Counted from the stretch's first letter, positions 1 to 34,617 are shown. The stretch: DNA of 64,000 nucleotides from an uncultured Gammaproteobacteria bacterium (GCA_964553245.1 CAZKJM010000001.1:145806-209805); one strand, 5' to 3'. Translations and numbers: made by a program. The notes: generated by a model not told the origin, from the sequence alone.

Positions 1-2170
1 CATTTACTTTTGCGTTCCATCCTGGAAAATATGTATCTGACATATAAAATAATGCTTGCTCATTTGTATTTACCTTAAATTTCTGCTGATTAATGTTATT
101 GTCAATCAAAAAAGCTGAGCCAGTTCCCTCTTTAAGCAAAATAGGAAGTTTTTCGCTTAATATTATCTTTTTATTAAAATTTAATAATGGTCTGGATAAT
201 TCACTTAATGACTTATTATCGCTTAAAACTTCGTAATCATAAACAAGATAAAATCTTTTAAGCGCATTTTTATTTTTATAAACTTTATATTTAGCATCTG
301 CGTAAATCTCGTCTAAATCTTTTTGATATTTCCCGGTCAGAAAATAATCAATTGATGGATTCCCGTCTTTTCCTCCGACTATCAACTCAACACCCAGAAT
401 ATCAAGAGTATTTTTTAATTTTTCCTGTTTATTTAAATAATACTTATTTGTGCTTGGGGGCTTTTCATCTTTTTTCCCTTGCAATGACTGCAAAAGAAGA
501 GCTGTTCTTTGAAGATACAAAGGATTATATGTTTCGGTTGAATAAATATTTAAATATGTTGAAATTTCAGGATCAGATATTCCATAATTTCTTACCAAAT
601 TGTTCTTTTGGTAATCTTTAATGTAATCTATAACCTTAGTCTCAGGATATAAAAATTTATTATTTGAGAATGTTAAGAATCTATACCCTAGAACAAATAA
701 ATCTGTAAAAGTTATTAATAAAATTAAAAATATAAAAATTACATTTGAGGTCTTTATTTTTTTAAAAACTAAATAAAATGATGTAACTACAAAAAAAAGA
801 AAAGTAAATGCTAGAGTGAATTTAACATTATGTATAAATTCATTAATTAAATCGTGACTTGATAAGCTAATAATTTTCCCAATAATAATAAAAGCAAATA
901 ATAAAACAAATAATAAAATACTTATAAACAGCTTCTTTCTGTTTTTATCCTTTATAAAATTGTCAAAACCAAACCCGGCAAGAACTGATCCCGAAAATAA
1001 ACTGAGCATAAAAAGTCTTGCACCTGAGCCATTGGTTATTAAAGGTATTTTTAAATAAAACAAAATATCTCCAATGTATTTAAATGAAAATAAAGCGCTT
1101 AAAATAAAAACAAAAGTAAAGAATTTAACAAAAATATTTTTGCGAGAAAAAATTGAGGCAAAAATTGCAAAAAATAATGGGATAATTCCAAAATAACCAC
1201 TTGTTTCAATATATCCAGATGTTAAATTATTAGTACTTGGACTACCAAAAAAATCAGGCGAGAATAAACGAAACAAGCGAATGGGCGTTAATAATTCACC
1301 AGCAAATGTATTAAATTTATCAGAAAATTCCCTATGTGAATTACTAAATAATTCAAATGCAGGAATAAGGGATATTGAAGTAACCAATGCTCCAAATGCT
1401 ATTGACAAAAACAGAAAAAGGTAATCTTTTTTTCTAAGTTTCTTTAGATAACCATAGAATAATATAAACGCAATAACTAAAAGTATGCCATATGCACTAA
1501 ATTGCAAATGACCTGCAAAGATTGAAAAAGCTATAGAAACACCAAGTAAGAATAAATATGCTCCTCTTTTGTTATCTGCATATCTTTTTGCAAAAAGCAA
1601 GAAAAGTGGAATCCACAGTATTACATGTCCCTCAGATCCGAACTGTAAAAAACCCATCATTAGGGAATTTAAAGCAAACGCAAAGCTTGAAAGAATACTT
1701 GAAAAATAGGAAAGCTTAAAATCCCTTGCTAATAAATAAAAGAAAAGTAATGATAAAAATATTTGTAAAAACAACAGCATATTCCAAGATGTTATTTCAC
1801 CAAAAACAAAAAAAATATTTGTTGGATAAAAAATTAAGGGCTTTAAAGAAGCTAAAAATGGAGTTCCCATGAATTGATAAGGGTTCCAGAAGGGAATTAT
1901 TCCATTGGTTAATGACTGAAAAACTAAATGTCTCCATGGATACATTTGAATAATTGCATCTTGTGTATAATTATTTTTTATTAATATTGTCCCTGGAGAA
2001 TACCACGGAAGATAATTACTAATTAACAGGTCTAATGGAAGCAAGATTAATCCTTGAAACATCGGAAAAAGATAAACTGACGTTAAAATTAAGAAAAAAG
2101 TTACTATAGATGAAATCTCTATAATTCGTCTATATTTATTAATGAAGCATTTAACATTATTAAAATTCAT
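1..2170 (-). CDS. YfhO-like GT-C membrane protein, C-terminus beyond window edge (partial)
   Basis: My own translation of the minus strand from ATG at 2170, which overlaps the TGA of the upstream gene as ATGA. The reading frame stays open to position 1. The product carries the same motifs as the three full-length YfhO-like paralogs: 'QMYPWRHL', 'IPFWNPYQFMGTP', 'SPDFFGSPST', 'GYFGIIPLFF'. It is absent from the ORF track because it runs off the window. Confidence 0.75.
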   Translation of the reverse strand, partial: MNFNNVKCFINKYRRIIEISSIVTFFLILTSVYLFPMFQGLILLPLDLLISNYLPWYSPGTILIKNNYTQDAIIQMYPWRHLVFQSLTNGIIPFWNPYQFMGTPFLASLKPLIFYPTNIFFVFGEITSWNMLLFLQIFLSLLFFYLLARDFKLSYFSSILSSFAFALNSLMMGFLQFGSEGHVILWIPLFLLFAKRYADNKRGAYLFLLGVSIAFSIFAGHLQFSAYGILLVIAFILFYGYLKKLRKKDYLFLFLSIAFGALVTSISLIPAFELFSNSHREFSDKFNTFAGELLTPIRLFRLFSPDFFGSPSTNNLTSGYIETSGYFGIIPLFFAIFASIFSRKNIFVKFFTFVFILSALFSFKYIGDILFYLKIPLITNGSGARLFMLSLFSGSVLAGFGFDNFIKDKNRKKLFISILLFVLLFAFIIIGKIISLSSHDLINEFIHNVKFTLAFTFLFFVVTSFYLVFKKIKTSNVIFIFLILLITFTDLFVLGYRFLTFSNNKFLYPETKVIDYIKDYQKNNLVRNYGISDPEISTYLNIYSTETYNPLYLQRTALLLQSLQGKKDEKPPSTNKYYLNKQEKLKNTLDILGVELIVGGKDGNPSIDYFLTGKYQKDLDEIYADAKYKVYKNKNALKRFYLVYDYEVLSDNKSLSELSRPLLNFNKKIILSEKLPILLKEGTGSAFLIDNNINQQKFKVNTNEQALFYMSDTYFPGWNAKVN

Positions 2171-3675
2171 TTTAGGTCAGTTCGTTTTTGAACAACAATA
2201 TCTCCATTTAATTTTTTAGAAGACACAACTCTCCCATCTCCCTCTCTTGCTTCAAGCCACCACCTAGGTCTATCTGGATATCCCGGATCAGCCTCAATAA
2301 TAAAATACATTATGTCTGCTTTTTTAACAGGTAAGTATCCATATTGCTTGTTTCCATACCATTTAAATAAGTATTGATAAGTATTATCAAAAACAGGAGG
2401 AGTATATAATTCATATTTAAAATTTTGAGTATTTGCGTCTTTATAAATATAATCTACCACCTTTAATTGATTTCTATAGACCGATGCATCTCCTTCCCAT
2501 AATGGTTTTTGAAAATTATTAATAATTGAAAATGAATTAACGTTTATTAAAAAAAACATAGCTAAAATTAAAAAAATTATTATTTTAATTTTTATTCTTT
2601 TGTATGCAATAAATAAACTTATGGATACAAGAAAAATATAAAGAATTGGAAGTCCTACGAAATAATGCGGCCATAAAGCATTGGTAAATATAATGCTGCC
2701 AATATAAAAAACCAAAAGTGTAATTACTGAAGTTAAAATGAAATTTTTAATTAAAACTGACGCTTTTTTATAAAATAAGATAATTACTACTATAGAAAAA
2801 ATTAATAAAAATATTTCTAAAATATTTCTTTGCGGAAAAAATACATTACTGAATTGATCTAGATGAGTATTAAATCTATTCTCTAAAAAATGATATAAAT
2901 CTAATTTATCTTCAAGCGTATCTTTTCCAAAAAACCTAAGAAAAGCCTTGCTCATTATAAAACTATGCCTTAATTCAAAAATTATTCTTGGAAGTAAAAT
3001 AATTATTCCGCCAACAAAAAAAAATATTATATGACCGATTCTTATTTTTCTACCCAGAATGACAAGAATTGAAAAAACGATTCCAATTAAAAATAATATT
3101 CCCCATAAAATTTCAACGTCAATATTTAAAAACAAAAGAAAACCAAGAAGAAAAAAATAAATAGATTTCGATTTTTTATTTAATACATATATTCTTTCCA
3201 AAATTATAAAAGTTAAAATCACTAATAAAGGTGCTATATTAGGGTTCCAAATTTGAGAAGATAAGGAAATAAGAATTGGGGAAAATGAAATTAAGAAAGC
3301 CAATACCAAGCCCAGGAAACTTCCACTTATCTTTTTACCAAAATAATAACTTAAAATAATTGTTAAAATTCCAAATACCGCCATTGAAAAAGCAATCCCC
3401 TGAGGGTTACCGTTAAAAATAACAAAAAACGGAGTTAATATAAGGTACCACCATGGACCATAAAAAACTCCCTCAATTCCAGTAGTTGGTCCAATTAAAC
3501 TAAGTTTATGGTCATAAACCATACTCCAAAGAGAAAGCATATCTCGTCCAACGTCATATGTAAACGCAAATGAGCCAGTAAAAACCCCCTCTAGTCTTAA
3601 CACAAGCCCCAGTATCAAAATTAGACACAGAAATAAATAATCTTTTTTAAAAATTTTTTTAAAATAAAGGTTCAT
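2167..3675 (-). CDS. Putative GT-C fold membrane glycosyltransferase, PMT_2-like (paralog of 60172..61758)
   Basis: 502 aa, multi-pass membrane protein. First-loop acidic motif 'YDVGRD' and 'LIGPTTGIEGVFYGPWWY' align with 'GDEGRD' and 'LLGPTASVGGFFLGPIYYY' of the 60172 gene. Both share 'SSQIWNPN'/'SRSSWNPN'. Confidence 0.65.
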   Translation of the reverse strand: MNLYFKKIFKKDYLFLCLILILGLVLRLEGVFTGSFAFTYDVGRDMLSLWSMVYDHKLSLIGPTTGIEGVFYGPWWYLILTPFFVIFNGNPQGIAFSMAVFGILTIILSYYFGKKISGSFLGLVLAFLISFSPILISLSSQIWNPNIAPLLVILTFIILERIYVLNKKSKSIYFFLLGFLLFLNIDVEILWGILFLIGIVFSILVILGRKIRIGHIIFFFVGGIIILLPRIIFELRHSFIMSKAFLRFFGKDTLEDKLDLYHFLENRFNTHLDQFSNVFFPQRNILEIFLLIFSIVVIILFYKKASVLIKNFILTSVITLLVFYIGSIIFTNALWPHYFVGLPILYIFLVSISLFIAYKRIKIKIIIFLILAMFFLINVNSFSIINNFQKPLWEGDASVYRNQLKVVDYIYKDANTQNFKYELYTPPVFDNTYQYLFKWYGNKQYGYLPVKKADIMYFIIEADPGYPDRPRWWLEAREGDGRVVSSKKLNGDIVVQKRTDLK

Positions 3676-3679
3676 TTCT

Positions 3680-5335
3680 TCAAGTTTTTGCTACTCTTAT
3701 TGCGGGCATGCCATCTAAATTATTTATCGTCTTAAAAGCCGCGGCAGCCGGTATCTCATCTGGATTCCCAATATACAACACATCTTTATGGTTTGCGTCT
3801 TTTGACCAATCAATTGGTCTAAATTCGTATTTGCCAAAAGATTGGTGCTCTGCAAATCCTCCCGAGCTACCCATTCCTATTTCTTGATAGTCTTTAGGGG
3901 AATATTTTAAATAGAAAAGGAAAAACATATATGACTTATCCATTGGTTGCTTATCTGAGACAACAATTTTCTGATAATTTTTTTCTATTGGCTTAATCTC
4001 ATCAATTACCTGCCTATATCCATATTGCCAATCCTGTGAATAATAATAATTCTGTTGCACAAAATACTGATTTAGAAAAAATGAAAAATTAAAAAGAAAA
4101 ATCGAAGCAAAAAATACATACGAAACATAGATTATTTTTTTAAATTTTTGAATAGCTAAAACTAATGCAATAAGCCCAATTGCTGAAAAAATATGCCAAG
4201 TTGGTAAAAAGTTTAATGTTCTAACTGCATGAGGAACTCCTGTTGTAACTGATGCTGGAATAGGAGCAATTAAAAACCAAAAAAATATAATAAGTTTTGA
4301 CTTTTTATCAAATTTACCAAAAATTAATGAATAGATTCCAATTAAGATTAAAGGTAATTCAAATAAGTACAAAAGACCGACACTTGGTGCATGATGACGG
4401 GAAATATCCCCTGTCATAAACAACCAATTTAAATCAAAATGCGAAATATATCCCGAAACAATTGTCTTTGCGTAAACAATTCTTCTGTTGTCTAAGAGAA
4501 AGCCAATCTTATTACCATCTTTAATATCCCTTTCAAGTTTTTGAGTATTTGTTTTTAAAAGCTCTGTTTTGTACGAAAAAATACTAGTTCCTTTTACCCT
4601 CAAAAGAGATGAGCTATCAGTCAAAACATAAATTACCATTGGTGTTAATACTACAAGCACTAAGACCACCGCTGATATTAAATATTTTTTACTGATCGAA
4701 AAAAGTTGTTTTCTATAAATTAAGATTAGAGCAATAACTAAAAGTGGAGTAAATACCCTAGTGCTTTGATAAATATATGGAGCAAGCCCTACGAAAATTG
4801 CTGAAACATATAAAAACCAAGGCTTTTTTAAGCCTTTTAGGAAAAACAAGACAATTAAAATATTAAAAGAAGAGCCAACGTTTGCCTCAAAACCAATTCT
4901 TGAAAACTGCAAAGACCAAGGAGATACTGCTAGAAAAAAACTTGTTAAAAGCGCAAGGCAATCTCTAAATTTATAACTTACAAATAAGTCTCTTATAAGA
5001 AAAAATACTGCTATAACTGAAGCAACTCCAAAAAAAGCAGAGGGAAATCTTACAGCAAATATATTTAATCCAAACGCTAAAATTGATGGAATAGAAAGAT
5101 ATGAATAAAGCGCTGGTTTATAATCATCAAAAGACCTAAGAACAACAGGTAAAAATTTTCCAAATTCATCTCTTCCTGTTTGAATAATTGAGTATGTATT
5201 GTAACCCAAGGCAACCTCATCCCAATCAGGCGAAGGGGGAACATTTCCAAGTTGATAAAATCTCAAAAATATTGCGATTAAAATAATAACTCCAAAAACA
5301 ATCCAAATTAATTTTTTAATCATAAGTATATGCAA
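3680..5335 (-). CDS. PMT/ArnT-family (GT39/GT83-like) GT-C glycosyltransferase, tandem paralog 1 of 5
   Basis: 551 aa. N-terminal 'RFYQLGNVPPSPDWDEV' with a DE motif in the first extracytoplasmic loop, then 'GRDEFGKFLPVV...DYKPALYSYL', about 11 TM segments and a roughly 150 aa C-terminal soluble domain. Confidence 0.8.
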   Translation of the reverse strand: MHILMIKKLIWIVFGVIILIAIFLRFYQLGNVPPSPDWDEVALGYNTYSIIQTGRDEFGKFLPVVLRSFDDYKPALYSYLSIPSILAFGLNIFAVRFPSAFFGVASVIAVFFLIRDLFVSYKFRDCLALLTSFFLAVSPWSLQFSRIGFEANVGSSFNILIVLFFLKGLKKPWFLYVSAIFVGLAPYIYQSTRVFTPLLVIALILIYRKQLFSISKKYLISAVVLVLVVLTPMVIYVLTDSSSLLRVKGTSIFSYKTELLKTNTQKLERDIKDGNKIGFLLDNRRIVYAKTIVSGYISHFDLNWLFMTGDISRHHAPSVGLLYLFELPLILIGIYSLIFGKFDKKSKLIIFFWFLIAPIPASVTTGVPHAVRTLNFLPTWHIFSAIGLIALVLAIQKFKKIIYVSYVFFASIFLFNFSFFLNQYFVQQNYYYSQDWQYGYRQVIDEIKPIEKNYQKIVVSDKQPMDKSYMFFLFYLKYSPKDYQEIGMGSSGGFAEHQSFGKYEFRPIDWSKDANHKDVLYIGNPDEIPAAAAFKTINNLDGMPAIRVAKT

Positions 5336-6956
5336 CTAATACTTCTTGCCCATTTAAACGATAAAATCTTTTTAATATATTTATATTTTCCGGCAAATTA
5401 TATGGCGTATTTATGTATAACACATCATTTTTTTTACTTAATTCATAATTATACTCATCTGGAAAAAGATACTTATCATAGCCTTTAATTGTTACAAATC
5501 CAAACGGATCCCTTTGAATACTTGCTGTTTCTCTAAAAAATTTAGGATTTGTTTCTGTATAAAATAAATAATAAACATATGGTCTTCCAAGTGCGCTTGT
5601 GATCTGAATATAGTCATAGTTTTTTTCAACAGATCTTACGTATTCAATAGATTCTTTATATCCATATTGCCACTCCCCAGAGTACTCATACGGATAATGA
5701 TTAATATAATTATGTAAAAAGTAAATAATGTTTAAAAACAGCAACAAAGAAATAATAGTAATTATTGTTGCCGACACCCATCTTTTATATTTTTTTATCC
5801 AAAAAAGGAACCTTACAAAACCATAAGCTGCTAAGATTTGAAACGTTGGGAGAGTAGTTTCAATTCTTAATGCATGAGGAGTTTCTCTTGCTGTTGCCGC
5901 CGGAATGATCCCAATCAATAACCAAGCTGGTATAATCCACCAATTATCTTCTCTCTTTCTTATTAAAAGAATTATCCCACCAACAAAAAAAGCAATATCC
6001 CAGATATACATTTGTCCAACATCTTGAATTGAAAACTTAGGATTACCATCCCCTCTTATAAATAGAAAATTTGGGGCTAAATTATCAAAATAATGTCTTA
6101 TGTATTCAAGCGAATAAAAAACTCTTCTATTATGAATTATATTTGACCAAAGAGTATTATTATTATTTTTAATTTGTTGATTTGCTGTTTTTACAACATT
6201 TATATCGGAAAAGATATTTACTTCTTTAAACCTTAAACTAGCTTGAGGAGATAGTAAAAATCCGACAATAGGAATAATTATTAATACACCTGCTATAATT
6301 GCTAATCCTATCTGTTTTTTTAAATTAAGAAGTTTTTTTCTAAAAGCAAATAAAAGAAGGAGTGCTAAAATAGGCACAACCACCCTTGATGTATTAAAAG
6401 TATATAGTGATATTGCAAATAAGATTGCAGAAATTACTAAATACCATTTTTTATCCTGAATCCCTGCTAAAAATGCCCAAATACCAGTTACAATAAAAAA
6501 ACTGGCAACATTTGCCTCAAACGCTGCTCTCGATAACATTATATGCCACGGAGATATAGCTAAAAACAGTGATGAAAATAATGCGTAATAATCTTTTTGT
6601 TTCGATCTATAAAAGATTCTCTGGGCTAAAAAGTAGGTCATAAATACTGTTAAAAATCCAAAAAAAGCTGATGGTAATCTAGTTGAAAATTCATTTAAAC
6701 CAAGAAGTTTAACAGGAATAATTGTTAAATATGCGTAAACAGGAGGTTTAAAATCTCCGAAGGATTCAAGATAATCATATGGAAGAAATCTTCCAAATTC
6801 ATCTTTTCCATCAATTCCTAATGAATATGCATTATATCCCCAAGATACCTCATCCCATGTAAGACTAGGGGGATTTTGTCCTAATTGATAGAATCTAATA
6901 ATAAACGAAAGTATTAAAACTAATACTAAAAAAATTTTAGCTTTATTTTTCCACAT
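5316..6956 (-). CDS. PMT/ArnT-family GT-C glycosyltransferase, tandem paralog 2
   Basis: 546 aa, 'RFYQLGQNPPSLTWDEV', 'GKDEFGRFLP', 'FGDFKPPVYAYL'. Overlaps the neighbouring gene by 20 nt. Confidence 0.8.
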   Translation of the reverse strand: MWKNKAKIFLVLVLILSFIIRFYQLGQNPPSLTWDEVSWGYNAYSLGIDGKDEFGRFLPYDYLESFGDFKPPVYAYLTIIPVKLLGLNEFSTRLPSAFFGFLTVFMTYFLAQRIFYRSKQKDYYALFSSLFLAISPWHIMLSRAAFEANVASFFIVTGIWAFLAGIQDKKWYLVISAILFAISLYTFNTSRVVVPILALLLLFAFRKKLLNLKKQIGLAIIAGVLIIIPIVGFLLSPQASLRFKEVNIFSDINVVKTANQQIKNNNNTLWSNIIHNRRVFYSLEYIRHYFDNLAPNFLFIRGDGNPKFSIQDVGQMYIWDIAFFVGGIILLIRKREDNWWIIPAWLLIGIIPAATARETPHALRIETTLPTFQILAAYGFVRFLFWIKKYKRWVSATIITIISLLLFLNIIYFLHNYINHYPYEYSGEWQYGYKESIEYVRSVEKNYDYIQITSALGRPYVYYLFYTETNPKFFRETASIQRDPFGFVTIKGYDKYLFPDEYNYELSKKNDVLYINTPYNLPENINILKRFYRLNGQEVLVAYTYD

Positions 6957-8598
6957 AATCTAAGTTTTCCGATTCAAAAAAGTAAACAACAATATTCACA
7001 CCATCTGGGCTTCTTAATAAATAAACAGGTGTATTTTCAGAAAGATCTTTTTTAAAACCAACATATAATACCTCTTTTCCAGTTCTGCTTAACTCAAGGT
7101 ATTCCTTTTCATCACTTGGAAAATTTCCAAAATAAAGATTATCAAACTTCATTGTTTCTGTTTTTGTTATATTAAGTTGATTCTTAAATGAATTCTGAAA
7201 TACCGATGGATCTATTTTGTTATAAAAAGCATAAAGAATTGGCCAGTCTTTTCCTCCGCTTACATAGACTTTATCATATTTATCCTTATTTTCAGTTATG
7301 TATTCTAAAGCTTTTTTTTGTGGCATTTGCCACCAATCTGAAGAATAAACAGGATAATCAAAAAAATATGTAAAAAGATAGCTTGAGACAAAAATTAAAC
7401 ACGATATTACAATAACTACTGTGCTTAAAATTTTAAATTTTTTCATTTTTCTAATAAATACATCATAAAAATATACTATCCCAACAGAAGAGAGGATTAC
7501 GGGGGCTGGAATTATTAACAAATCCCTATATGCATAATAACCTGTACTTGTTAATCCACCTGGAACAGCTGCAAAAATAATCCAAAGAAGTAAAAATACA
7601 AAAGTTTTTTTATCTTTTCTAAATAAATAATAAAGTCCAAGAAAGAAAAATGGCAGTTCAAAAAGATAATACTGACCATGATTTGATACTCCCTTGTCTA
7701 AATTGCTTTCTCCATTTAGAAACATATAGTTTATAGAAAAAAATCCTGTATATGTGGTTGTGAAAAGCCTAATATAATAAATTGGCTTGTTATGAAAAAT
7801 ATTTGATAACCATAAAGGAGCGTTGCTCAAATGTCTTTCGCTATTTACAACATTAGTTGCTTTTATAGAATCAAAAATAGAAGTATCTTTTATCTTAGAA
7901 ATTCCGTCAAATAAAGTTAACTTCCATGAAAAGATATATAAAAATCCAAAGAATATTAAAAATAATAACAAATATTTTTTACTAATCTTAAACAAATCTT
8001 TTTTATAATAAAAAATTACTGGTAAAAATATTGTCAGAAAAATTTTTGGTGCATGATAAGAAAATAAAGATAATCCTAAAATTAATCCAGCAATAGGTAA
8101 TAAATAAAGCTTTCTTTTATCGACATAAAACATTAAGGTTATTCCAAAAAGAACTAGGAATAAGCAAAGAGATTCCTCAAGTCCAGTTCTTGAAAGCTGA
8201 ATGCTCCATGGATTTACTGCTAAAAGTAACGTGGAAACAATTGAAACCTTTTTATTCTTGAAAAGCTTATCTACAAAAAAATAAAACGTGACTACGGTTA
8301 ACAAACCTAAAACCGCAAAAGGAATACGCTCAACAAATGCATTAAGTCCCCAAAAATTAACAAACGGAATCAATAAGTATATTGCTAAAGGCATTCTGTG
8401 ATTATCTTGAAATTGAAGTGGTAAATAGTTCCCGTATTGATCGTTTCCAGTTTGCAATATGCTATATGCACTATAAGCAGCTTCAGCTTCGTCAACATGC
8501 ATACTAGGCGGGTTAACCCCTAAGTTCCAAACTCTTAAAAATAATGCAACCAAAATTATTAGTATAAAAATAAAGTTTTTTTTGAAAAAGTTTCTCAT
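6943..8598 (-). CDS. PMT/ArnT-family GT-C glycosyltransferase, tandem paralog 3
   Basis: 551 aa, 'LRVWNLGVNPPSMHVDEAEAAYSAYS', 'GNDQYGNYLP'. Same architecture as paralogs 1 and 2. Confidence 0.8.
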   Translation of the reverse strand: MRNFFKKNFIFILIILVALFLRVWNLGVNPPSMHVDEAEAAYSAYSILQTGNDQYGNYLPLQFQDNHRMPLAIYLLIPFVNFWGLNAFVERIPFAVLGLLTVVTFYFFVDKLFKNKKVSIVSTLLLAVNPWSIQLSRTGLEESLCLFLVLFGITLMFYVDKRKLYLLPIAGLILGLSLFSYHAPKIFLTIFLPVIFYYKKDLFKISKKYLLLFLIFFGFLYIFSWKLTLFDGISKIKDTSIFDSIKATNVVNSERHLSNAPLWLSNIFHNKPIYYIRLFTTTYTGFFSINYMFLNGESNLDKGVSNHGQYYLFELPFFFLGLYYLFRKDKKTFVFLLLWIIFAAVPGGLTSTGYYAYRDLLIIPAPVILSSVGIVYFYDVFIRKMKKFKILSTVVIVISCLIFVSSYLFTYFFDYPVYSSDWWQMPQKKALEYITENKDKYDKVYVSGGKDWPILYAFYNKIDPSVFQNSFKNQLNITKTETMKFDNLYFGNFPSDEKEYLELSRTGKEVLYVGFKKDLSENTPVYLLRSPDGVNIVVYFFESENLDYVEK

Positions 8599-9197
8599 TT
8601 AACTATAGTAAACCACATATTCATTCCCAGCTCAAAGAACCCATTTTTAATACCTTCCTCTTTAAATCCATTGTTTTTTAAAATAGACTTTATCTTTACG
8701 TTATTATGATTATGCTTATGATCTTCTATTTCCTCTTTACTAATTAAGCCAATTTTTCCCATAAAATGAAGTAAAAAATCTACCCAAGGAGCTGGTGTTG
8801 TAATTATAAATACGCCATTCTTATTCAAAACTCTTGAAACTTCTTTTAGAACAAATGAAAGTTTGTCATTATTTATATGTTCAAAAACAGCAAGCATAGT
8901 TATTACATCAAAATGGTTATCTTTAAACGGAAGTTTTTGTTTTTCAATATTTAGCTTTTTTAGAATAACTGATTTATTCTTTACTAAGTTTAAATTAACA
9001 CTTGAATCTATTCCGTATTTTTCTTCTAAATCTGAATTAATTAAAAAATATGGATAGAAACCGCAACCAATATCTAACACTCTACCTTTTTTTCCAAAAC
9101 GAGAAATAAGCTTATTTGCCATTTGCCCTCTTTTTTTTGCTAGGAATTTTTCCAGCAAACCATAACCTCTAGTAGGATTCAAAGAATTATTCATCAC
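8595..9197 (-). CDS. Class I SAM-dependent methyltransferase
   Basis: 200 aa. Motif I 'VLDIGCGFYPYF', 'FDVITMLAVFEHI' and 'NGVFIITTP' are typical of Methyltransf_11/23. It is inserted between PMT-like paralogs 3 and 4 with 4 nt and 11 nt overlaps. Confidence 0.75.
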   Translation of the reverse strand: MMNNSLNPTRGYGLLEKFLAKKRGQMANKLISRFGKKGRVLDIGCGFYPYFLINSDLEEKYGIDSSVNLNLVKNKSVILKKLNIEKQKLPFKDNHFDVITMLAVFEHINNDKLSFVLKEVSRVLNKNGVFIITTPAPWVDFLLHFMGKIGLISKEEIEDHKHNHNNVKIKSILKNNGFKEEGIKNGFFELGMNMWFTIVK

Positions 9198-10869
9198 TAT
9201 TTATTTTAGCAGACACTGTAGCATAATATTCCATTATTCTAAAGGCTGTTGTTCCATCCTTCCATTTAATTTCCTTTAGTTCCAAACTTGCTTTTGTAGG
9301 CGTCTTACAATTTCCGGAATCAATAAAAAGCATTTTCGTAGGATCATAGTTTTTAATTCCATTTAAGGCACAGTCCATAGGCACAAAATAATATTTATCA
9401 AACCCGCTATAATCAAGATCTCTTGGTGATCCTAAGGCCTGATATTTTAAAGGATCATATTTATTGTTAAATAAAATATGAATATATGGACTTCCAACAG
9501 ATTTAGAGATTACAATTTTTTCATATTTTGGATAATACATATTTAATTCTTTAACTAATTCTTTATATGCATATTCTCGATGCCATGGTTGATGTTTTTC
9601 CTGATGTACATAATACTGATGCTGAAAATAGGCTAATTCATAGACTCCAACCAAAACAAGAATTAGTATTAGGATTTTTGCCATTTTTCCTCCTATCTGT
9701 TTATAATTGAAAAATTCATAAATACCCAAGGAAATTATTATTATTATTGCTGGAAGAATTACTAATGATCTATATAGATTGGGAATTTCATCATATGTAA
9801 TTGCAGCTGGGATTAATAATAAAAACCACCATCCTAAAATTAATAAGCTAGTTAAATTCTTTTTTCTTATTAAGAAGTAAACTCCCATTAATAAAAATGG
9901 TAATTGCCAAATATAAAAAAGCCCAGCTTGATAAACGCTTACTCTTAAAGGAAAGCCTCCCTTAAGAACTAAAAAATCAAGTGTAAGGTATTTTGCATAA
10001 TTATCAATTAAGGTTCTTGAATAACTAGCTATTTTATTATGAAAAGCTCTTGTTATTAAAACAGGCGTAAATTGGTCTTCTCTTATTTGCTCCTCCATTA
10101 TTAACTTTGTTTCTGGGCTTGAAAAAATTGACACTTGATTAAATCTGTCAATGGAACCAATAAAACTATAACCAATACCAATAATCATAAAAAATAGAAT
10201 TACAAAAATAGTGCTTTTACTAAAACTAATTTTCTTCTTAATTTTTTTTAATGAATGTATGAAAAACAATCCCGCTATTAAAACAATAAAAAATCTAGAA
10301 GCTGTATAGCTTAACACTGCAAAAATACCACTGATCAAAGATATAAATATCCACCTTTTGTTATATTTTTCATTTAGTGATAATAAACCATATGACATCA
10401 GTAAAATAAAAAATAAAGAAGCTACCACCTCACTCACAACTCTACTTAAAATTAAATGCCAGGGTGAAATCGCTAAAAGAAGAGAAGATATTAACGCAAT
10501 TTTCCTATCTTTAAACAATTTAAAGCTAAAAAAATAAATTAAAATTACTGTAGCTATTCCAAAAATAGCTGAGGGTAATCTTGTAGAAAAAGTATTTAAA
10601 TCAAAAAGATATACAAAGGGAATATCTAAGTATGAATATAGTGCTGGTTTAAAATCGCCAAAAGATTTAAGGACAATTGGAAAAGCTTTGCCATATTCAT
10701 CTTTTCCGGTTTCTAAGATGGAAAACGCGTTGTAACCAAAAGCTGCCTCATCGGCTGTAAATCCCGATGGCACATCACCAAGTTGATAAATTCTTAAAAA
10801 AGAAGAAAATACCAGGATTAAAAACAGCCAAAAATATATATTTTTTGTTAATTTTCGTAAATATTCCAT
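9187..10869 (-). CDS. PMT/ArnT-family GT-C glycosyltransferase, tandem paralog 4
   Basis: 560 aa, 'LRIYQLGDVPSGFTADEAAFGYNAFS', 'GKDEYGKAFP', 'FGDFKPALYSYL'. Confidence 0.8.
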   Translation of the reverse strand: MEYLRKLTKNIYFWLFLILVFSSFLRIYQLGDVPSGFTADEAAFGYNAFSILETGKDEYGKAFPIVLKSFGDFKPALYSYLDIPFVYLFDLNTFSTRLPSAIFGIATVILIYFFSFKLFKDRKIALISSLLLAISPWHLILSRVVSEVVASLFFILLMSYGLLSLNEKYNKRWIFISLISGIFAVLSYTASRFFIVLIAGLFFIHSLKKIKKKISFSKSTIFVILFFMIIGIGYSFIGSIDRFNQVSIFSSPETKLIMEEQIREDQFTPVLITRAFHNKIASYSRTLIDNYAKYLTLDFLVLKGGFPLRVSVYQAGLFYIWQLPFLLMGVYFLIRKKNLTSLLILGWWFLLLIPAAITYDEIPNLYRSLVILPAIIIIISLGIYEFFNYKQIGGKMAKILILILVLVGVYELAYFQHQYYVHQEKHQPWHREYAYKELVKELNMYYPKYEKIVISKSVGSPYIHILFNNKYDPLKYQALGSPRDLDYSGFDKYYFVPMDCALNGIKNYDPTKMLFIDSGNCKTPTKASLELKEIKWKDGTTAFRIMEYYATVSAKINSDE

Positions 10870-12479
10870 ATTATACGTAATGGCTCTCCCCTATCTACAA
10901 TTTTAGCAGATGGAGTACTTAAATAATGACAATCTACGAAAGATGAAATATACAAGGTATTCTTGGGTAGGAATTTTTCCGTATATCCAACTCCATTATT
11001 TATACAGTTTTGATAGATTCTTAAACTTCCTATTTGTGCTGGATTTTTGCCCCAAGCGCCCTGCAAAATCCTAGGATCTGTCTTTTCATATATTCCATAG
11101 ACTAAAAGAAAATCATATCCTTGCTTACTTAAGTAGATATTAGAATACTTATCCTTGTTTCGCATTATTAAGCTTGATAAATCCCGTGAATTTGAATTTA
11201 CACCCTCTGCTCCATAGATTGGCCATCTAAAATAATATTGATATAAATAGCTTGAAAAAAGAAAAAAGTATACTATTATTATTGTCAAAAATAATGTAAG
11301 TCTATAAAACTTTTTAAATTTTAATATTTTATCCAATGACATAGAAAGCCCATAGGCAACAATGATAATAAGTACTGGAAGCAACATAATATTTCTATTT
11401 ACAAAACTTTTATCAATGGTAAAAGTAGATGGAAGTGCTCCTATTATAAGCAATGTAAAAATAAATGTTTTTAGAAATCTATTTTTATTTTTAAGTAGTA
11501 AATATAAACCAATGAGCAAAAGGGGTAATTCAATAATATATAACTCTCCCCTTTGGGATATATTATTTGATCCAGACAATGGACCTGTATCGCCATATAA
11601 AAATAAAAACTCCAGAGAAAAAGGACCAAGAAAATTTTCTCTCATAGTTTTTAAATAATGCAAAGGTTTATTACTAAATATCTGACGAAAAATTATCGGT
11701 GCATTGCTATAGGTCCTTTCTAGATTAACTTGTTTTGCTGAATAAATGTTATTAAACAAATTTACATCAACTTGTCTTGTTACGCCCTGTGATTTAATAA
11801 CAAATAAAAATGAAATAAAGAAAAATGCACAAATTATCAAAAATAATGTAACGCTTTTTATATGTTTAAATAGTTTTGCGCGAAAGAAAAACAACAATAC
11901 TGGGATTAAAAATAAAAAGTATACTTTTGTTGCGTGATAACTATAAAAAGCCAAAGCAAATGGTATTAAAGACCATAAATATTTTTTCCCAGAGGCATTA
12001 GGAATGAATATATATAACCCCGATAATAAGAAAAACAACGAAAAATTTACATCCAAAAAGCTTCCTCTTGCTACTTGAAGTGCCCAAGGAGAAATAGAAA
12101 AAAGCAGTGAGCTTAATAATGCTACACGTTTGTTTTTAAACAAAAAATCAGATATTAAAAAAATTAAATAGACAGAACAAATTCCCATCAACGAAGAAAG
12201 AATCCTACCGGAAAAAGAACTAACCCCCAAAATCCCAACAAAAGGAGAAATTAAATATACAACTACTGGAGATGCGGAAGAATAAGCATTAAAAGAAAGA
12301 GGTAAAAAATTTCCTTGAACATCTCTTCCTGTATTCCAAATGCTATAGGCATTATAAATATAATTTGCTTCATCATCAATAACTCCATAAGGAATATTAC
12401 CTAATTGATATAATCTTAAAACAGAAGCTAAAAATATTATTAAAATTAATAATATTTTCCAATTAAAAAACCTAAGCAT
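10848..12479 (-). CDS. PMT/ArnT-family GT-C glycosyltransferase, tandem paralog 5
   Basis: 543 aa, 'LRLYQLGNIPYGVIDDEANYIYNAYS', 'GRDVQGNFLP'. Confidence 0.8.
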   Translation of the reverse strand: MLRFFNWKILLILIIFLASVLRLYQLGNIPYGVIDDEANYIYNAYSIWNTGRDVQGNFLPLSFNAYSSASPVVVYLISPFVGILGVSSFSGRILSSLMGICSVYLIFLISDFLFKNKRVALLSSLLFSISPWALQVARGSFLDVNFSLFFLLSGLYIFIPNASGKKYLWSLIPFALAFYSYHATKVYFLFLIPVLLFFFRAKLFKHIKSVTLFLIICAFFFISFLFVIKSQGVTRQVDVNLFNNIYSAKQVNLERTYSNAPIIFRQIFSNKPLHYLKTMRENFLGPFSLEFLFLYGDTGPLSGSNNISQRGELYIIELPLLLIGLYLLLKNKNRFLKTFIFTLLIIGALPSTFTIDKSFVNRNIMLLPVLIIIVAYGLSMSLDKILKFKKFYRLTLFLTIIIVYFFLFSSYLYQYYFRWPIYGAEGVNSNSRDLSSLIMRNKDKYSNIYLSKQGYDFLLVYGIYEKTDPRILQGAWGKNPAQIGSLRIYQNCINNGVGYTEKFLPKNTLYISSFVDCHYLSTPSAKIVDRGEPLRIIWNIYEN

Positions 12480-12493
12480 AAGTTTCTTTATAT

Positions 12494-13213
12494 TTAATTT
12501 ATAAATCTATATTTTATAAGACTCCAAAGGGCTATGCTTCCATCTCTTATGGTATTAATCTTTTTCCCTTCATTATATCCTCTGGGACTTGCTTTAATTG
12601 GGATTTCGAGAATCTTATATCCCTTTTTAAGTAACTTCGCTGTAACCTCTGGCTCTAATTCAAAACCTCTCGCATTTAATTTGATATTATTCATAGCCTT
12701 TTTAGGAAAAAGTTTATAACAAGTTTCCATATCTGTTATCCACTGTTTGTAAAGAATGCTTGTTATAAGACTTAAAAATCTATTTCCTAAATAATGAAGT
12801 AAGAACTGAGATGTTTTTTCCTCATCTTTTAAATTAGGAGCCCTTTTAATTCTCGTACCGTAAACTACTTTTGCTTTATTTTCTAAAATTGGCTTTACTA
12901 AATCTTTTATATATTTTGGATGATACTCTAAATCAGCATCTTGAATTAAAATGTAATCTCCGGTTGCTTTTTTAATACCTGTTTTTACAGCACTACCCTT
13001 GCCTGAGTTCTTATCATGTTTTAAAAGCTTTATGCTTTTGTTAGTTTTTATGTATTTCTGTAAAAGAGTAGGCGTACTATCAATTGAACCATCATCAACA
13101 ACTATAATTTCTTTTTTTATATTTGGGGTGTTTTCTTTTTTAAGACGATCCAATAATTTAATAACCGTATTTTCCTCGTTATAAACGGGAATTATTATGG
13201 AAAGTTTCATCAT
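12494..13213 (-). CDS. GT2 polyprenol-phosphate sugar synthase (DPM1/ArnC/GtrB-like)
   Basis: 239 aa, 'LSIIIPVYNEE', 'VVDDGSIDST', 'GKGSAV', 'DADLEYHP'. The DxD motif arrangement matches dolichol-P-mannose synthase-like GT2 enzymes. Confidence 0.75.
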   Translation of the reverse strand: MMKLSIIIPVYNEENTVIKLLDRLKKENTPNIKKEIIVVDDGSIDSTPTLLQKYIKTNKSIKLLKHDKNSGKGSAVKTGIKKATGDYILIQDADLEYHPKYIKDLVKPILENKAKVVYGTRIKRAPNLKDEEKTSQFLLHYLGNRFLSLITSILYKQWITDMETCYKLFPKKAMNNIKLNARGFELEPEVTAKLLKKGYKILEIPIKASPRGYNEGKKINTIRDGSIALWSLIKYRFIN

Positions 13214-14154
13214 TTAATAAATTCAGCAAAGATTTCTTTGTCCTTTTTAACAAATAATTTTTCAGCTTTAAATTTAGATTTTATAATTTCCGGAAGTAAA
13301 AATAAAGCCTTAAAAAAACCTAAAAAACAAGCTAAATCTAAACCAATAATTTGTTTTGCTAAATAATATGGTAAAAAGAGAATATGGTTTAAGATTAAAT
13401 CCTTATCAGTAATGTTTTTCCAAACAAAAATAAACTGATTCTTATAAGCAATCTTTTTTATATCAAAACTTGAATACCTACTTTTTATTGCTCCTTTTTC
13501 ATGTTCATGCAAAACTACGCTTTTATTTTCAAATAATATTTGATACCCAGATTTTAAAGCTCTATATGACAAATCAATATCCTCCCAATAAAATGGGTCA
13601 TATAATGAATCTAGTCCTTCAAGTTTTTCCCAAATTGATTTTCTAAACGCACCACTTCCTCCACTTACCCAAAGAGTGTTTGACGCATCAACCTTTCCTT
13701 TTGAATGAATTAAAAATCCTTTTTTAAATACTCCGACTCCTCTTCCTCTTAAAGTAATTTTTTCTCCATCTACGCTTTTATCCATACAACCTACTGCAAA
13801 AATATTTTTGTCTTTAAAATGATTAATTAAGGGCTTAAGAAAATCTTTTTCAGGAATAATATCTGTATTTAAAAGAATTAATATTTCCCCAGTAGATTTA
13901 CTAACTCCAATATTTACATTGGATGAAAAACCTTTATTTTTTTTATTTTCAATAATCTTAGATGAAAAATTATTATTATTTACTTTTCCTAAAACTTCTT
14001 TTGCAACTTCTAAAGAATTATCTTCGGATCCATCATCTGTTAAAATAAATTCTATTTCGTATCCTTTATCAATTACTGATTCAATAACCTTAGGCAGATT
14101 TTTTTTGAGTAAATTTTCTCCGTTATAATTTGGAATAACAATGCTTATTTTCAT
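13210..14154 (-). CDS. GT2 family glycosyltransferase
   Basis: 314 aa, 'ISIVIPNYNGENLL', 'TDDGSEDNS', 'DPFYWEDIDLSYRALKSGY'. Confidence 0.75.
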   Translation of the reverse strand: MKISIVIPNYNGENLLKKNLPKVIESVIDKGYEIEFILTDDGSEDNSLEVAKEVLGKVNNNNFSSKIIENKKNKGFSSNVNIGVSKSTGEILILLNTDIIPEKDFLKPLINHFKDKNIFAVGCMDKSVDGEKITLRGRGVGVFKKGFLIHSKGKVDASNTLWVSGGSGAFRKSIWEKLEGLDSLYDPFYWEDIDLSYRALKSGYQILFENKSVVLHEHEKGAIKSRYSSFDIKKIAYKNQFIFVWKNITDKDLILNHILFLPYYLAKQIIGLDLACFLGFFKALFLLPEIIKSKFKAEKLFVKKDKEIFAEFIK

Positions 14155-14157: not shown

Positions 14158-16428
14158 TTAAAAAAGTGAATTTTTAAATTCAATTTTATGATTTCCTTTT
14201 GGAACAATTATACCTCTAAAACTGTAATCTGTTATATAGATTTCTGTATTTTTTCCATCTATTGTTGCGCTCCAAGTTGGATAATAACTATCAGTTAAAA
14301 CCAAAAATCCATCTCCTTGACATTGAGTGTTTAAAATAATTTTGTTTTCTTGATAACTTTTAATCTCTATTTTCCCAAGATCCCAATTAGATTTAAAAAA
14401 GCTTTTATCTTTAACCCCTTCTACAATTGCAGTTTTTTCAAGAGGATTATCTATATTAAACATCTCATTAATTGCCTCTTGTTTTGATTCAACTAATTTT
14501 GTATTTACTACAAAAAAAACTTTTGGGTATGCGTTATTATTTTCATAAACTATAATCTTTCCATTTCTATAAACTTCACTAAGCTTACTTTCAGTTAGTT
14601 CATTAAAGCTTAAAACATACTTAACACCTAATAAATCCATGATCCTTGATGAAACATTTTGAGGAGTTATTATTCGATTAAACCCAAAAGGAGGTAAGAT
14701 GTCTGGCTTTCCCCTTCCAACAGCTGCCATTAATTCTCCATATCTTTGAAGATATAAAGGATCATAACCATCAAGTGTTTGAATTTTATACATTATAGAA
14801 AAGTTTGGTGGAAAAATGCTTGGATCAGTTGACATAACTCTAAAATATCCATTTTGCTCTTTTAGAAATTCAGTTACTGCAGTATTTGGAAATAAATATT
14901 CTTTTTTAGAAAATGTTTCAAACTTTAAGCCAAATCTAAAAAGATCAAAAACCGTAATAGCTATTAAAACAATTAAAAAGTAGTTTAAAATCTTTTTATT
15001 TTTATAAAAAACTAATATTAAAAATAAAATTAAAGATGTTAGAAATATAATACATGGAAGTATTAAGTTTTGTCTTGCAACTGATAGATTTTCAAGAGAT
15101 ATTACTTGCCCATTTGAAAAAAGCACAAACCCCCAAAGAGAAATAAAGAATAATGAGATAACCAAAAGAATATATAAAATATTCTTTTTATTTTTTACTC
15201 TTATAAAATAATCTAATCCAAGCGCAGCTAAAATACTTAATGAAAAATCGGTTAAAAATAAAAGTCTTGTTGGCTGAGATGTTGAAATTAACGGAATTTC
15301 TAATTTATATGGAATCTTTGAAATAACGCTTGGGAAAGCAAATATTAAGGACACAAAGAAAAAGCTTCCAAAAAACATTGTTTTTTTATCTTTTCTAAAA
15401 AAGAGTGCAAGAAATGCGAGAACAAGTGGAATAATTCCAACATATCCAATAAACTCTGTATAATTCCAAATACCATAATAATTAAGCGTTGCAGGATTAC
15501 CGAAAAAATCTGGAGCTAAAAATTGAATCATGTTTTGCCAAGGAATGAACCACCCTTCAGCTTGCCAACCAATTACATCTAAACTTCTTGCAGACATTGA
15601 TATAAACTTTAAAGTTGGAAACCATTGAGGAATTGAAATAATAACAAAAAACGCAAAAAGAAATGTAAAAAAAGCTGTTTTTTTAACCTTCTCTTTTCTG
15701 CAAATTAATTTAGAAAGCATATAGAAAAATAGAAGTACTATTAAATAGAAAAAAGTTTGTAAATGTCCTGCAAAAAAGGAAAAAGCTAAAGAAAGTACAA
15801 AAACAATCGACCAAATAGAAATATTTTTATTTAATAAATTTTCTTTTTCAAAAAGAGTAAATAGTTTGTCTACTGACAATAAAGCCAGCGGTAACCAAAG
15901 AACAGTATTTAATATTGTTCCCCATTCAAGCCAAGCGATCGAGAAGCCTGAGAAAGAAAATGCAATAGCTCCTAACAAAGACGAGAACTTTTTTAATTTT
16001 AAATTGTTTAAATAAAAATAAAGAAAAAACCCAGCTAAAACAGGTTGCAGGAAAATAAAAAGACTCCAAGAAATTTCAAAAGGTGCAAGAAAAAATAAGA
16101 AATTAAGCGGATAAAAAACAGATGATTGAAAATTTGCAAGAAGCAAAGTGCCTGAAAAATTATATGGATTCCATGTTGGTAAAATATTATTTTTCTTTTG
16201 CTCTATTGATAAATACTTCCATGGATATTGCTGTCTAACAGGATCTGTAATTAAGAAATTTTTAAATGGAATTCCGTTTGGATTTGTTTTAGCATAAATA
16301 TCTCTAAATGGATAATATAACCCAACAATCGTATCGGATGGAATTGGAAGTAAACCTTTTAAAAAAAATTGCCAAAAGAAAATAACAACCAGCAAAAAAT
16401 ATATTATTGGTAAAAATAATTTCTTCAC
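14158..16428 (-). CDS. YfhO-like GT-C membrane protein
   Basis: 756 aa, many TM segments. Carries 'QQYPWKY', 'WNPYNFSGT', 'FLAPDFFGNP' and 'GYVGIIPLVLAF', the motifs of the bacterial YfhO family. Confidence 0.8.
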   Translation of the reverse strand: MKKLFLPIIYFLLVVIFFWQFFLKGLLPIPSDTIVGLYYPFRDIYAKTNPNGIPFKNFLITDPVRQQYPWKYLSIEQKKNNILPTWNPYNFSGTLLLANFQSSVFYPLNFLFFLAPFEISWSLFIFLQPVLAGFFLYFYLNNLKLKKFSSLLGAIAFSFSGFSIAWLEWGTILNTVLWLPLALLSVDKLFTLFEKENLLNKNISIWSIVFVLSLAFSFFAGHLQTFFYLIVLLFFYMLSKLICRKEKVKKTAFFTFLFAFFVIISIPQWFPTLKFISMSARSLDVIGWQAEGWFIPWQNMIQFLAPDFFGNPATLNYYGIWNYTEFIGYVGIIPLVLAFLALFFRKDKKTMFFGSFFFVSLIFAFPSVISKIPYKLEIPLISTSQPTRLLFLTDFSLSILAALGLDYFIRVKNKKNILYILLVISLFFISLWGFVLFSNGQVISLENLSVARQNLILPCIIFLTSLILFLILVFYKNKKILNYFLIVLIAITVFDLFRFGLKFETFSKKEYLFPNTAVTEFLKEQNGYFRVMSTDPSIFPPNFSIMYKIQTLDGYDPLYLQRYGELMAAVGRGKPDILPPFGFNRIITPQNVSSRIMDLLGVKYVLSFNELTESKLSEVYRNGKIIVYENNNAYPKVFFVVNTKLVESKQEAINEMFNIDNPLEKTAIVEGVKDKSFFKSNWDLGKIEIKSYQENKIILNTQCQGDGFLVLTDSYYPTWSATIDGKNTEIYITDYSFRGIIVPKGNHKIEFKNSLF

Positions 16429-17495: not shown

Positions 17496-17565
17496 AATCT
17501 TATTTTATCAAGTTTATAAACCTATTGCATTCTCATAAAATAAAATAATATAATCTAGTAAGAAT

Positions 17566-17808
17566 ATGAACAGTTCATTTCCAGGTTTACCATTTCCTCA
17601 ATATTTAATATATATAATAATGGTTTGGTCTATAGCCTGGAAAGGTTTAGCATTATGGCATTCGGCAAGAAATAATCAAAAAAACTGGTTTTTAGTAATG
17701 CTCGTAATAAATACTATAGGGATTATGGAAATTGTTTATTTATTTGGTTTCTCAAAGAAAAAATTAGCCCTCAAAGATCTTGCGTTTTGGAAAACTAAAG
17801 AAAAATAA
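17566..17808 (+). CDS. Small two-TM membrane protein, PLDc_N-like (cardiolipin-synthase N-terminal domain family)
   Basis: 80 aa. 'WSIAWKGLALWHSARNNQKNWFLVMLVINTIGIMEIVYLFGF' fits the conserved W..LW.A.RN...W...NT.GI...YL pattern. It is the only plus-strand gene in the 34 kb array and has its own upstream TTGCAT-N18-TATAAT promoter. Its 3' end overlaps the 3' end of the convergent YfhO gene by 45 nt. Confidence 0.6.
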   Translation: MNSSFPGLPFPQYLIYIIMVWSIAWKGLALWHSARNNQKNWFLVMLVINTIGIMEIVYLFGFSKKKLALKDLAFWKTKEK

Positions 17809-34543: not shown

Positions 34544-34617
34544 GCCGCGTTCGTCTAGTGGCCTAGGACGTCACGTTCTCAACGTGAAGATCAGGGGTTC
34601 GACTCCCCTACGCGGTA
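34544..34617 (+). tRNA. tRNA-Glu (anticodon CUC)
   Basis: Hand-folded cloverleaf. Acceptor GCCGCGT/ACGCGGT, D-arm 'TCGTCTAGTGGCCTAGGAC' (classic tRNA-Glu), anticodon stem TCACG/CGTGA with loop TTCTCAA, T-arm AGGGG-TTCGACT-CCCCT, discriminator A. CCA is not encoded. Confidence 0.85.

Follow-up and report, generated by a model that had tools for sequence, protein, structure and literature searches.

An array of five PMT/ArnT-like membrane glycosyltransferase paralogs, probably acting outside the membrane, in the glycan locus of a putative Levybacteria genome

The 64,000-nucleotide stretch CAZKJM010000001.1:145806-209805 (assembly GCA_964553245.1), here called the window, carries on its minus strand, between positions 3680 and 12479, an array of five genes whose products are, by their sequences and a structural model, true paralogs of the PMT/ArnT-like GT-C kind, together with one gene for an S-adenosylmethionine (SAM)-dependent methyltransferase (MT). 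We consider it probable that the five proteins are specialised members of a Patescibacteria-specific subfamily of integral-membrane GT-C glycosyltransferases (PMT/ArnT-like, "GT39") and that they carry out polyprenyl-phosphate-sugar-dependent glycosylation outside the membrane. Judging by the array's homologs, which come from Candidatus Levybacteria and other Patescibacteria, the host is a member of the Levybacteria (Candidate Phyla Radiation [CPR]/Patescibacteria) with a reduced genome; the G+C content of the window is about 28%.

Read 5' to 3' on that strand, the genes are ordered P5-P4-MT-P3-P2-P1. P5 (10848-12479; 543 amino acids [aa]), the most divergent copy, is followed by P4 (9187-10869; 560 aa), MT (8595-9197; 200 aa), P3 (6943-8598; 551 aa), P2 (5316-6956; 546 aa), and P1 (3680-5335; 551 aa). 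These coordinates and lengths match exactly those in a preliminary description of this DNA, which had recognised five neighbouring paralogs of 543 to 560 aa but had not stated their strand. When the longest open reading frames (ORFs) are taken, successive genes overlap by 22 (P5/P4), 11 (P4/MT), 4 (MT/P3), 14 (P3/P2), and 20 (P2/P1) nucleotides, the same sizes as had been given for the junctions, including the 4- and 11-nucleotide overlaps that flank the embedded methyltransferase. The true start of P1 is more likely an ATG four codons downstream, at 5323, because the database protein P0001 is 547 aa long, and that of MT is more likely an ATG one codon downstream, giving 199 aa; the revised starts convert the junctions into ATGA-type overlaps of 8 nucleotides each. 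The genes had also been called co-translated, for which the correct wording is co-transcribed and possibly translationally coupled. None of the six ORFs contains an internal stop, and a check for the frameshifts and premature stops that had been raised as a possible objection found every copy intact and none decayed.

The five paralogs are 26-36% identical to each other in pairwise comparison. All of them score above the Pfam gathering threshold of 26.1 bits for PMT_2 (PF13231), with 35.0 bits for P1 (E = 2e-8), 49.4 for P2 (7.8e-13), 29.5 for P3 (1e-6), 40.2 for P4 (5.4e-10), and 40.9 for P5 (3.2e-10), and their similarity is therefore far beyond chance. P2 (50.9 bits, 2.1e-13) and P4 (43.0 bits, 5.3e-11) also pass the gathering threshold of 22.7 bits for PMT (PF02366), whereas P5 stays below it with 17.4 bits and P1 and P3 gave no match in that search; MIR and PMT_4TMC were not matched by any of the five at E <= 0.01 in Pfam. 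When a profile of the five paralogs was compared with solved structures, yeast Pmt1 was the best sequence match (E = 2e-4), and the match to ArnT was not significant (E = 0.7). The N-terminal DE signature of the array aligns with the catalytic VFDEVHFG motif of Pmt1. Such a signature had been described before and is indeed common to the five paralogs, but five rather than six residues precede the DE pair and P4 has isoleucine at the second position, so that the corrected form reads R-[FVIL]-[YW]-[QN]-L-G-x2-P-x5-D-E. In P1 the pair is Asp39-Glu40 (codons at 5216-5221, minus strand), the putative catalytic site in the first external loop, unchanged across the five paralogs and 60 homologs. Over the 60-sequence family alignment D39, E40, and R25 are all invariant; the five window paralogs also share R146 without exception and all keep K216, which almost never varies in the larger set.

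An AlphaFold2 model of P1, based on the 60-sequence alignment (pLDDT 89.4, pTM 0.90), was matched by Foldseek with probability 1.00 to STT3 (E = 1.1e-7), ArnT (2.4e-7), AglB, PglB, Pmt4, ALG9, and EmbC, and the highest TM-score, 0.54-0.55, was obtained with ArnT. The membrane core of the model has the helix arrangement of the GT-C class, and the predicted topology places the acidic motif after TM1, in the first extracytoplasmic loop, as in the GT-C_A class. The order of the modelled helices and the distribution of short loops rich in lysine and arginine, read by the positive-inside rule, indicate 11 transmembrane (TM) helices with the N-terminus inside, in line with the roughly 11 TM segments counted in the preliminary description. 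Three elements are predicted to face outside: the loop with the DE motif, the C-terminal domain, and between them a long helical loop (residues ~240-325). With Pfam, the Pmt1 profile match, and the GT-C fold in agreement, the original PMT/ArnT-like assignment stands, and public annotation already names homologs "glycosyltransferase family 39" or "ArnT-like" (the latter for many of them at the Joint Genome Institute [JGI]).

We compared the array with 23 related loci (given here by L numbers), each anchored by a P1 ortholog, by mapping their ORFs onto the window proteins. This revealed a conserved backbone, YfhO - GT2b - GT2a - [MT] - [0-3 accessory GT39 copies] - P2 - P1 - X502, where the brackets enclose variable elements. 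P1 orthologs are 53-78% identical across the 23 loci, and in 20 of these P1 is directly preceded by a P2 ortholog (55-76%), the other three contigs starting at P1. Copy number, which had been put forward as a point on which related genomes might differ, does vary, from two to five, as the constant P2-P1 pair plus none to three accessory copies: arrays of two copies were found in L011, L012, L013, L017, L020, and L022, of three in L002, L007, L008, L010, and L018, and of four in L001, L004, L006, L009, and L015, while L003 has about five and the window five. Neighbour-joining analysis of 69 proteins sorts the copies into at least six orthogroups (P1, P2, P3, P4, P5, and a further one, Q), with bootstrap values of 98-100 of 100; the clade values are 100 for P2, 98 for P4, 100 for P5 (with copies from L018, L004, and L003), and 100 for Q, and the sole close ortholog of P3 (66%) is in L001. 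Orthologs of each window paralog occur in other genomes, so the duplications are older than the split between these genomes, and the arrays differ by gain or loss of accessory orthogroups, not by recent tandem expansion. The tree, with its old and well-supported orthogroups, rules out a recent or lineage-specific tandem duplication. The earlier proposal of tandem duplication followed by divergence therefore holds in that the genes are true paralogs, but not if it is taken to mean a young or lineage-specific expansion.

Orthogroup Q, which lies directly upstream of P2 in L002, L003 (6650-8365), L004, L006, L007, L009, and L023, is absent from the window, where P3 occupies this position. In L023 two separate ORFs, of 285 and 147 aa, make up the P1 ortholog (74-78% identity; ~3200-4700), a sign of pseudogenisation by frameshift or else of an assembly error. 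Two other window genes were considered as additional members of the family and rejected, as only the N-terminal 140 columns could be aligned in either case: X502 (hhalign probability 46%) as a sixth member, and the PMT_2 gene at 30946-32532 (90%) as a seventh. X502 itself (2167-3675, minus strand) encodes a distant GT-C-like membrane protein with a weak PMT_2 match (E = 0.0052), and its orthologs (47-69% identity) follow P1 in 14 of the 23 loci.

The paralogs are not conserved evenly along their length. Identity within the P1 clade, within the P2 clade, and between clades is 61%, 66%, and 29-43% for residues 1-250; 64%, 72%, and 17-32% for the loop at residues 251-320; 58%, 59%, and 19-32% for residues 321-425; and 56%, 57%, and 15-28% for the C-terminal domain. 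Taking all clades together, within-clade identity is 33-62% in the C-terminal domain and 38-78% in loop 251-320. Within most orthogroups no region is better conserved than the loop (64-78%; P5 departs from this with 38%), yet between orthogroups it ranks among the least conserved. In P1 it is encoded at window positions ~4376-4585 (minus strand), lies between TM7 and TM8, and is short and helical in the model, with a lower pLDDT of 60-78. These patterns show the C-terminal domain to be constrained within orthogroups about as strongly as the membrane core and to differ between them; as a candidate specificity determinant, loop 251-320 has a claim at least equal to that of the domain. The preliminary description had noted strong divergence only for the C-terminal domain; the property is shared by the loop, which it did not mention and which is at least as paralog-specific.

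Calculation of the ratio of nonsynonymous to synonymous substitution rates (dN/dS) per domain, which had been recommended at the outset, was carried out by the Nei-Gojobori method on eleven ortholog pairs from P1, P2, Q, and P3. It gave 0.02-0.24 across all four regions, rough values in that dS often exceeded 1, and 0.03-0.22 for the C-terminal domain, with no excess over the other regions. The ratios thus point to purifying selection on the whole protein, the C-terminal domain included.

The C-terminal alpha/beta domain is predicted to be extracytoplasmic and in P1 spans residues 432-551 (3683-4042, minus strand); the equivalent domains, on the same strand, are encoded at 5319-5684 (P2), 6946-7344 (P3), 9190-9591 (P4), and 10851-11213 (P5). 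A soluble domain of about 150 aa had been attributed to each paralog; the domain is present in each, at a smaller size of about 120-135 aa. Modelled alone, it forms a small alpha/beta unit (pLDDT 90.3), and a Foldseek search of this isolated domain against the PDB returned nothing significant (best E = 0.36, TM-score <= 0.37) and did not retrieve the periplasmic domain of ArnT. Between the window paralogs it is the most diverged region, with a mean identity of 22%, compared with 41% in the first 120 residues; the range across copies is 13-34%, and the P5 domain is only 13-18% identical to the others. All pairs of clade profiles for the domain nevertheless align with hhalign probabilities of 85-99.8%, P5 being the weakest, so that the domains are both related and strongly diverged, as was originally claimed, and the alternative of unrelated C-terminal domains is not borne out. 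Among 1.84 billion representatives, a profile of the domain matched 2693 clusters at E <= 1e-3, of which 1090 were at E <= 1e-10. In all 150 best matches of the 2693 the hit lies at the extreme C-terminus, and the carriers are 530-600 aa long or shorter, the shorter ones probably being contig-edge fragments; at least among those 150, the domain appears to be confined to this architecture. It opens in P1 with the sequence WQYGY (residues 436-440), a motif that hardly varies in the P1 and P2 orthogroups and is degenerate in the accessory copies (WQMPQ in P3, REYAY in P4, and VNSNS in P5).

Upstream of the array lie two genes for GT-A enzymes. GT2a (12494-13213, minus strand), a candidate polyprenyl-phosphate-sugar synthase of 239 aa with no TM segment, has as its best PDB match the Pyrococcus furiosus dolichyl-phosphate-mannose (Dol-P-Man) synthase 5mlz (E = 2.8e-18), which covers residues 2-222 and hence the whole catalytic domain, followed by GtrB and ArnC. 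GT2b (13210-14154, minus strand; Glycos_transf_2, E = 7e-27) is 314 aa long with a hydrophobic C-terminus, and in its case Dol-P-Man synthase and ArnC match the N-terminal half only. The GT2b-GT2a pair is found directly upstream of the array in 14 related loci, and GT2b is always paired with GT2a. The window and these 14 loci have a candidate GT-A synthase encoded alongside the GT-C genes, as in transmembrane glycosylation systems. It is mainly because this linkage to the array is conserved that we propose GT2a as the source of the polyprenyl-phosphate-sugar donor.

In the mechanism that we favour, GT2a, and possibly GT2b too, would transfer a nucleotide-sugar-derived hexose to polyprenyl phosphate at the cytoplasmic face of the membrane. 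The lipid-linked sugar would then be flipped across the membrane, where the only flippase candidate seen in the locus is a Wzx-type protein (23380-24834, minus strand; Polysacc_synt_3, E = 4.4e-53), which may instead serve an undecaprenyl-diphosphate-oligosaccharide pathway. At the outer face each paralog would move the sugar to its own acceptor site or linkage on an envelope glycopolymer or surface protein, using the invariant and putatively catalytic Asp-Glu motif of external loop 1, with loop 251-320 and the C-terminal domain as the likely determinants of acceptor specificity. P2 and P1 would form the constant core pair, and P3, P4, and P5 would be accessory enzymes drawn from a pool of old orthogroups, whose presence or absence would vary the surface glycan between Levybacteria lineages. 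As a rough ranking of acceptors, a wall or membrane glycopolymer seems the best single candidate at somewhat under even odds, a protein (Pmt-like) comes not far behind, and a lipid (ArnT-like) and any other class are outside chances of equal weight. Glycosylation by a GT-A enzyme, a flippase, and a GT-C enzyme acting together is established for wall polysaccharides (PMC9574508) and for streptococcal surface proteins, in the GtrB/PgtC2 and PgfS/PgfM1 systems (10.1101/2024.05.05.592596), and these are the precedents for the proposed mechanism. The GT-C components of the Gtr, CsbB/YfhO, Csd, and Gac systems diverge because their acceptors differ, and in streptococci Wzx-type flippases serve GT-C systems (PMC9574508).

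Several observations weigh against this mechanism. The fold matches of the P1 model have a low sequence identity, about 10-15%, and the array is thus distant from characterised enzymes, a distance also visible in the nonsignificant ArnT profile match. The NCBIfam matches of GT2a to AglJ, PgfS, and PpgS are weak, all far below the equivalog cut-offs; no GtrA-type flippase was seen in the glycan locus, and a scan of the window for Ser/Thr-rich candidate acceptor ORFs found none. Promoter and terminator scans gave results at or below shuffled expectation and so were uninformative on operon structure, for which the gene overlaps are therefore the sole basis. Finally, since the C-terminal domain has no fold match in the PDB, a binding role for it is a guess.

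A reading that we regard as possible, at clearly less than even odds, is that the paralogs are bacterial Pmt-type protein O-mannosyltransferases, supplied by a Ppm1-like GT2a, with the different copies modifying different surface or secreted proteins and P2 and P1 perhaps forming an obligate heterodimer like Pmt1-Pmt2. The position of Pmt1 as best sequence match among solved structures, with the DE motifs aligned, the PMT-like topology predicted from 11 TM helices, and the Dol-P-Man synthase match of GT2a all fit it, as does the adjacency of P2 and P1, whose genes overlap, in every locus where both are visible. Monoderm GT-C enzymes are moreover known to O-glycosylate surface proteins, as in the streptococcal GtrB/PgtC2 and PgfS/PgfM1 systems, which combine a GT-A enzyme, a flippase, and a GT-C enzyme (10.1101/2024.05.05.592596). 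The Pfam PMT model divides the array, however, since P2 and P4 pass its cut-off but P5 falls short and P1 and P3 are unmatched, and no copy has a MIR domain or a PMT_4TMC match. The best fold scores are with STT3 and ArnT and not with PMTs, the gene cluster, with its Wzx-type protein and many GT2 genes, is of the polysaccharide type, and the window scan gave no Ser/Thr-rich acceptor nearby.

It is unlikely that the paralogs are ArnT-type enzymes that add an aminoarabinose-like sugar to a membrane glycolipid and so alter surface charge. ArnT does give the top TM-scores, is similar in size, and likewise has a C-terminal external domain, JGI calls many homologs "ArnT-like", and P2 and P5 have weak NCBIfam ArnT matches; these reach only ~18-20 bits against a cut-off of 567 (NF009784). 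The ArnT-type reading is weak because the sequence similarity is not significant and because no arn-type genes (arnA/B/D) for aminoarabinose (Ara4N) were present among the window ORFs scanned. ArnT also has 13 TM helices, compared with the 11 predicted here, CPR bacteria are not known to synthesise lipid A, and a single lipid target would poorly explain five specialised copies. Even less probable, in our judgment, is that the copies lack functions of their own, whether as redundant or decaying duplicates or as non-catalytic subunits. The free gain and loss of accessory copies between genomes, the barely alignable C-terminal domain of P5, and the split P1 ortholog of L023 might be read in this way, but all five ORFs are intact, every copy has orthologs, and the C-terminal domain is conserved within clades. 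The retention of D39-E40, R25, R146, and K216, P5 included, together with the low dN/dS everywhere (in pairs from P1, P2, Q, and P3), makes decay or redundancy unlikely, and pseudogenisation was rejected on the strength of the intact ORFs and dN/dS. A bolder version of the polyprenyl-phosphate-sugar-dependent mechanism, which we offer as speculative, would have P2-P1 as a heteromeric core and P3, P4, P5, and Q as an interchangeable, modular, and lineage-variable kit that rewrites the surface glycan, with the C-terminal domain and loop 251-320 as a new acceptor-recognition module.

Comparison with known systems places the array among several relatives. Like the PMT enzymes (CAZy GT39; yeast Pmt1/Pmt2/Pmt4 and actinobacterial Pmt with Ppm1), the array has the GT-C fold, a DE motif in external loop 1, about 11 TM helices, several paralogs per genome with different (in the array, proposed) specificities, and a Dol-P-Man-synthase-like GT2 as the likely source of donor. 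Its proteins have neither the MIR domain in the large external loop nor the C-terminal four-TM PMT_4TMC region of eukaryotic PMTs, and actinobacterial Pmt is not known to have MIR either. They end in an additional alpha/beta domain of 120-135 aa, P1, P3, and P5 are under the PMT cut-off, identity in the fold matches is 13-20%, and a protein acceptor is here only putative. ArnT (GT83; PDB 5ezm/5f15) shares with the array a similar length and the order of membrane core and C-terminal external domain, in addition to its top TM-score, and the upstream GT2 of the array resembles ArnC as well as Dol-P-Man synthase and GtrB. It differs in its sequence, its number of TM helices, a periplasmic domain that the isolated C-terminal domain does not retrieve, its association with Ara4N genes, which the window lacks, and lipid A, which is not expected in the host.

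The multi-component systems GtrA/B/C (of enterobacterial phages), CsbB/GtcA/YfhO, CsdA/CsdB (lactococcal), GacI/J/K/L (streptococcal), GtrB/PgtC2, and PgfS/PgfM1 resemble the array in pairing a conserved GT-A enzyme with a variable, acceptor-specific external GT-C enzyme; a Wzx-type flippase is possible, and YfhO-type GT-C genes are present in the array's own locus. Such systems normally have one GT-A and one GT-C enzyme, whereas the array has up to five homologous GT-C enzymes after one GT2 pair; in addition, no GtrA-family flippase was seen here, and the GT-C enzymes of the array are PMT_2 proteins with their own C-terminal domain, not YfhO or GtrC. In the mycobacterial and corynebacterial sets (EmbA/B/C, AftA-D, MptA-C, and PimE), as is proposed for the array, several polyprenyl-phosphate-sugar-dependent GT-C enzymes each make their own linkage of one wall glycan, and some are hetero-oligomeric and have C-terminal external domains; EmbC and PimE are weaker fold matches of the P1 model. 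These sets draw on different CAZy families and contain no close paralogs in tandem, their C-terminal domains are large carbohydrate-binding modules, and the fold matches have E values of 3e-3 to 0.5.

The methyltransferase embedded in the array (minus strand) is of class I, with a Methyltransf_11 match (E = 1.5e-12) and the SAM motif VLDIGCG; NCBIfam and PDB searches gave generic matches only and no specific family. It has no TM segment and is therefore cytoplasmic. Orthologs with 53-67% identity are present in 11 of the 23 related loci, directly after GT2a in L002, L004, L007, and L010-L013 and, as in the window, after a P4-type copy in L001, L003, and L006; none was found within 10 kb upstream of P1, the extent fetched, in L008, L009, L015, L017, L020, or L022. 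Because its position shifts and because it is present in the two-copy arrays L011-L013, MT belongs to the locus and not to a particular paralog. It had been described as splitting the array, and between P4 and P3 of the window it does so, but this placement is not a fixed feature, as the gene moves within related loci. A plausible role, in line with the sugar methylation suggested earlier, is that MT would act on a sugar or on a lipid-linked intermediate in the proposed glycosylation pathway.

Around the array, a minus-strand glycan locus of ~34 kb with few gaps extends from the start of the window to position 34478. In addition to the array, this locus contains seven GT2 genes, one GT4 gene, the Wzx-type flippase gene, another PMT_2 gene, three full-length YfhO genes and a fourth running off the left edge (1-2170), and two YfhO/PTPS-related genes. 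The ORFs at 21771-22469 (232 aa) and 32514-33701 (395 aa), both on the minus strand, have no Pfam match; the 395-aa protein has homologs in L008, L009, and L014. The sole sizeable intergenic gap, of 268 bp (17496-17763), separates a YfhO gene (17764-20091) from the GT4 gene (16425-17495) and could contain an internal promoter from which the genes downstream, the array among them, would be transcribed; consensus scans were uninformative. A tRNA-Glu(CTC) gene on the opposite strand (34544-34618, plus) forms the upstream boundary of the locus. Just past it is a DUF2079 gene (35199-36626), and a further GT4 gene lies at 39730-40941; the remainder of the window is housekeeping and includes a tRNA-Gln(CTG) gene at 43950-44021. 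At least 15 GT-C-type membrane genes are encoded in the 64-kb window (within 1-36626 and at 60172-61758), on a contig of ~0.56 Mb: P1-P5, X502, the four YfhO genes, the two YfhO/PTPS-related genes, two further PMT_2 genes, and the DUF2079 gene.

Clear Levybacteria-type arrays stand in the records of L003, L006, L008, L009, L012, L013, L016, L019, L020, and L023 under the label "uncultured Gammaproteobacteria bacterium" (third-party annotation [TPA] assemblies) or, in one case, "Candidatus Pacearchaeota archaeon", names that probably are placeholders or stem from mis-binning.

The array belongs to a well-known enzyme kind and is not a new system, and, its enzymology being expected to conform to the GT-C paradigm, it adds to this class without changing it. 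A literature search for GT39 or PMT arrays in CPR bacteria or Levybacteria found no description of the Levybacteria arrays in the library searched, and multi-copy dolichyl-phosphate mannosyltransferase annotations are mentioned only in passing for other CPR genomes. Three points are modestly new: the organisation into a constant pair with variable accessory copies, a C-terminal domain with no solved structural relative, and the density of GT-C genes in a contig of this size. The framework that emerges from the comparison sets a constant pair of enzymes beside accessory copies that vary, with a donor synthase linked to them and two regions as candidates for setting specificity. More than 30 kb of a tiny genome is devoted to the building of surface glycan, an unusually large investment in extracytoplasmic glycosylation, and envelope decoration probably matters for host attachment and phage resistance in CPR bacteria. 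Should the heteromeric core and its interchangeable kit prove real, variation at the surface could govern host attachment or phage evasion in these episymbiotic bacteria.

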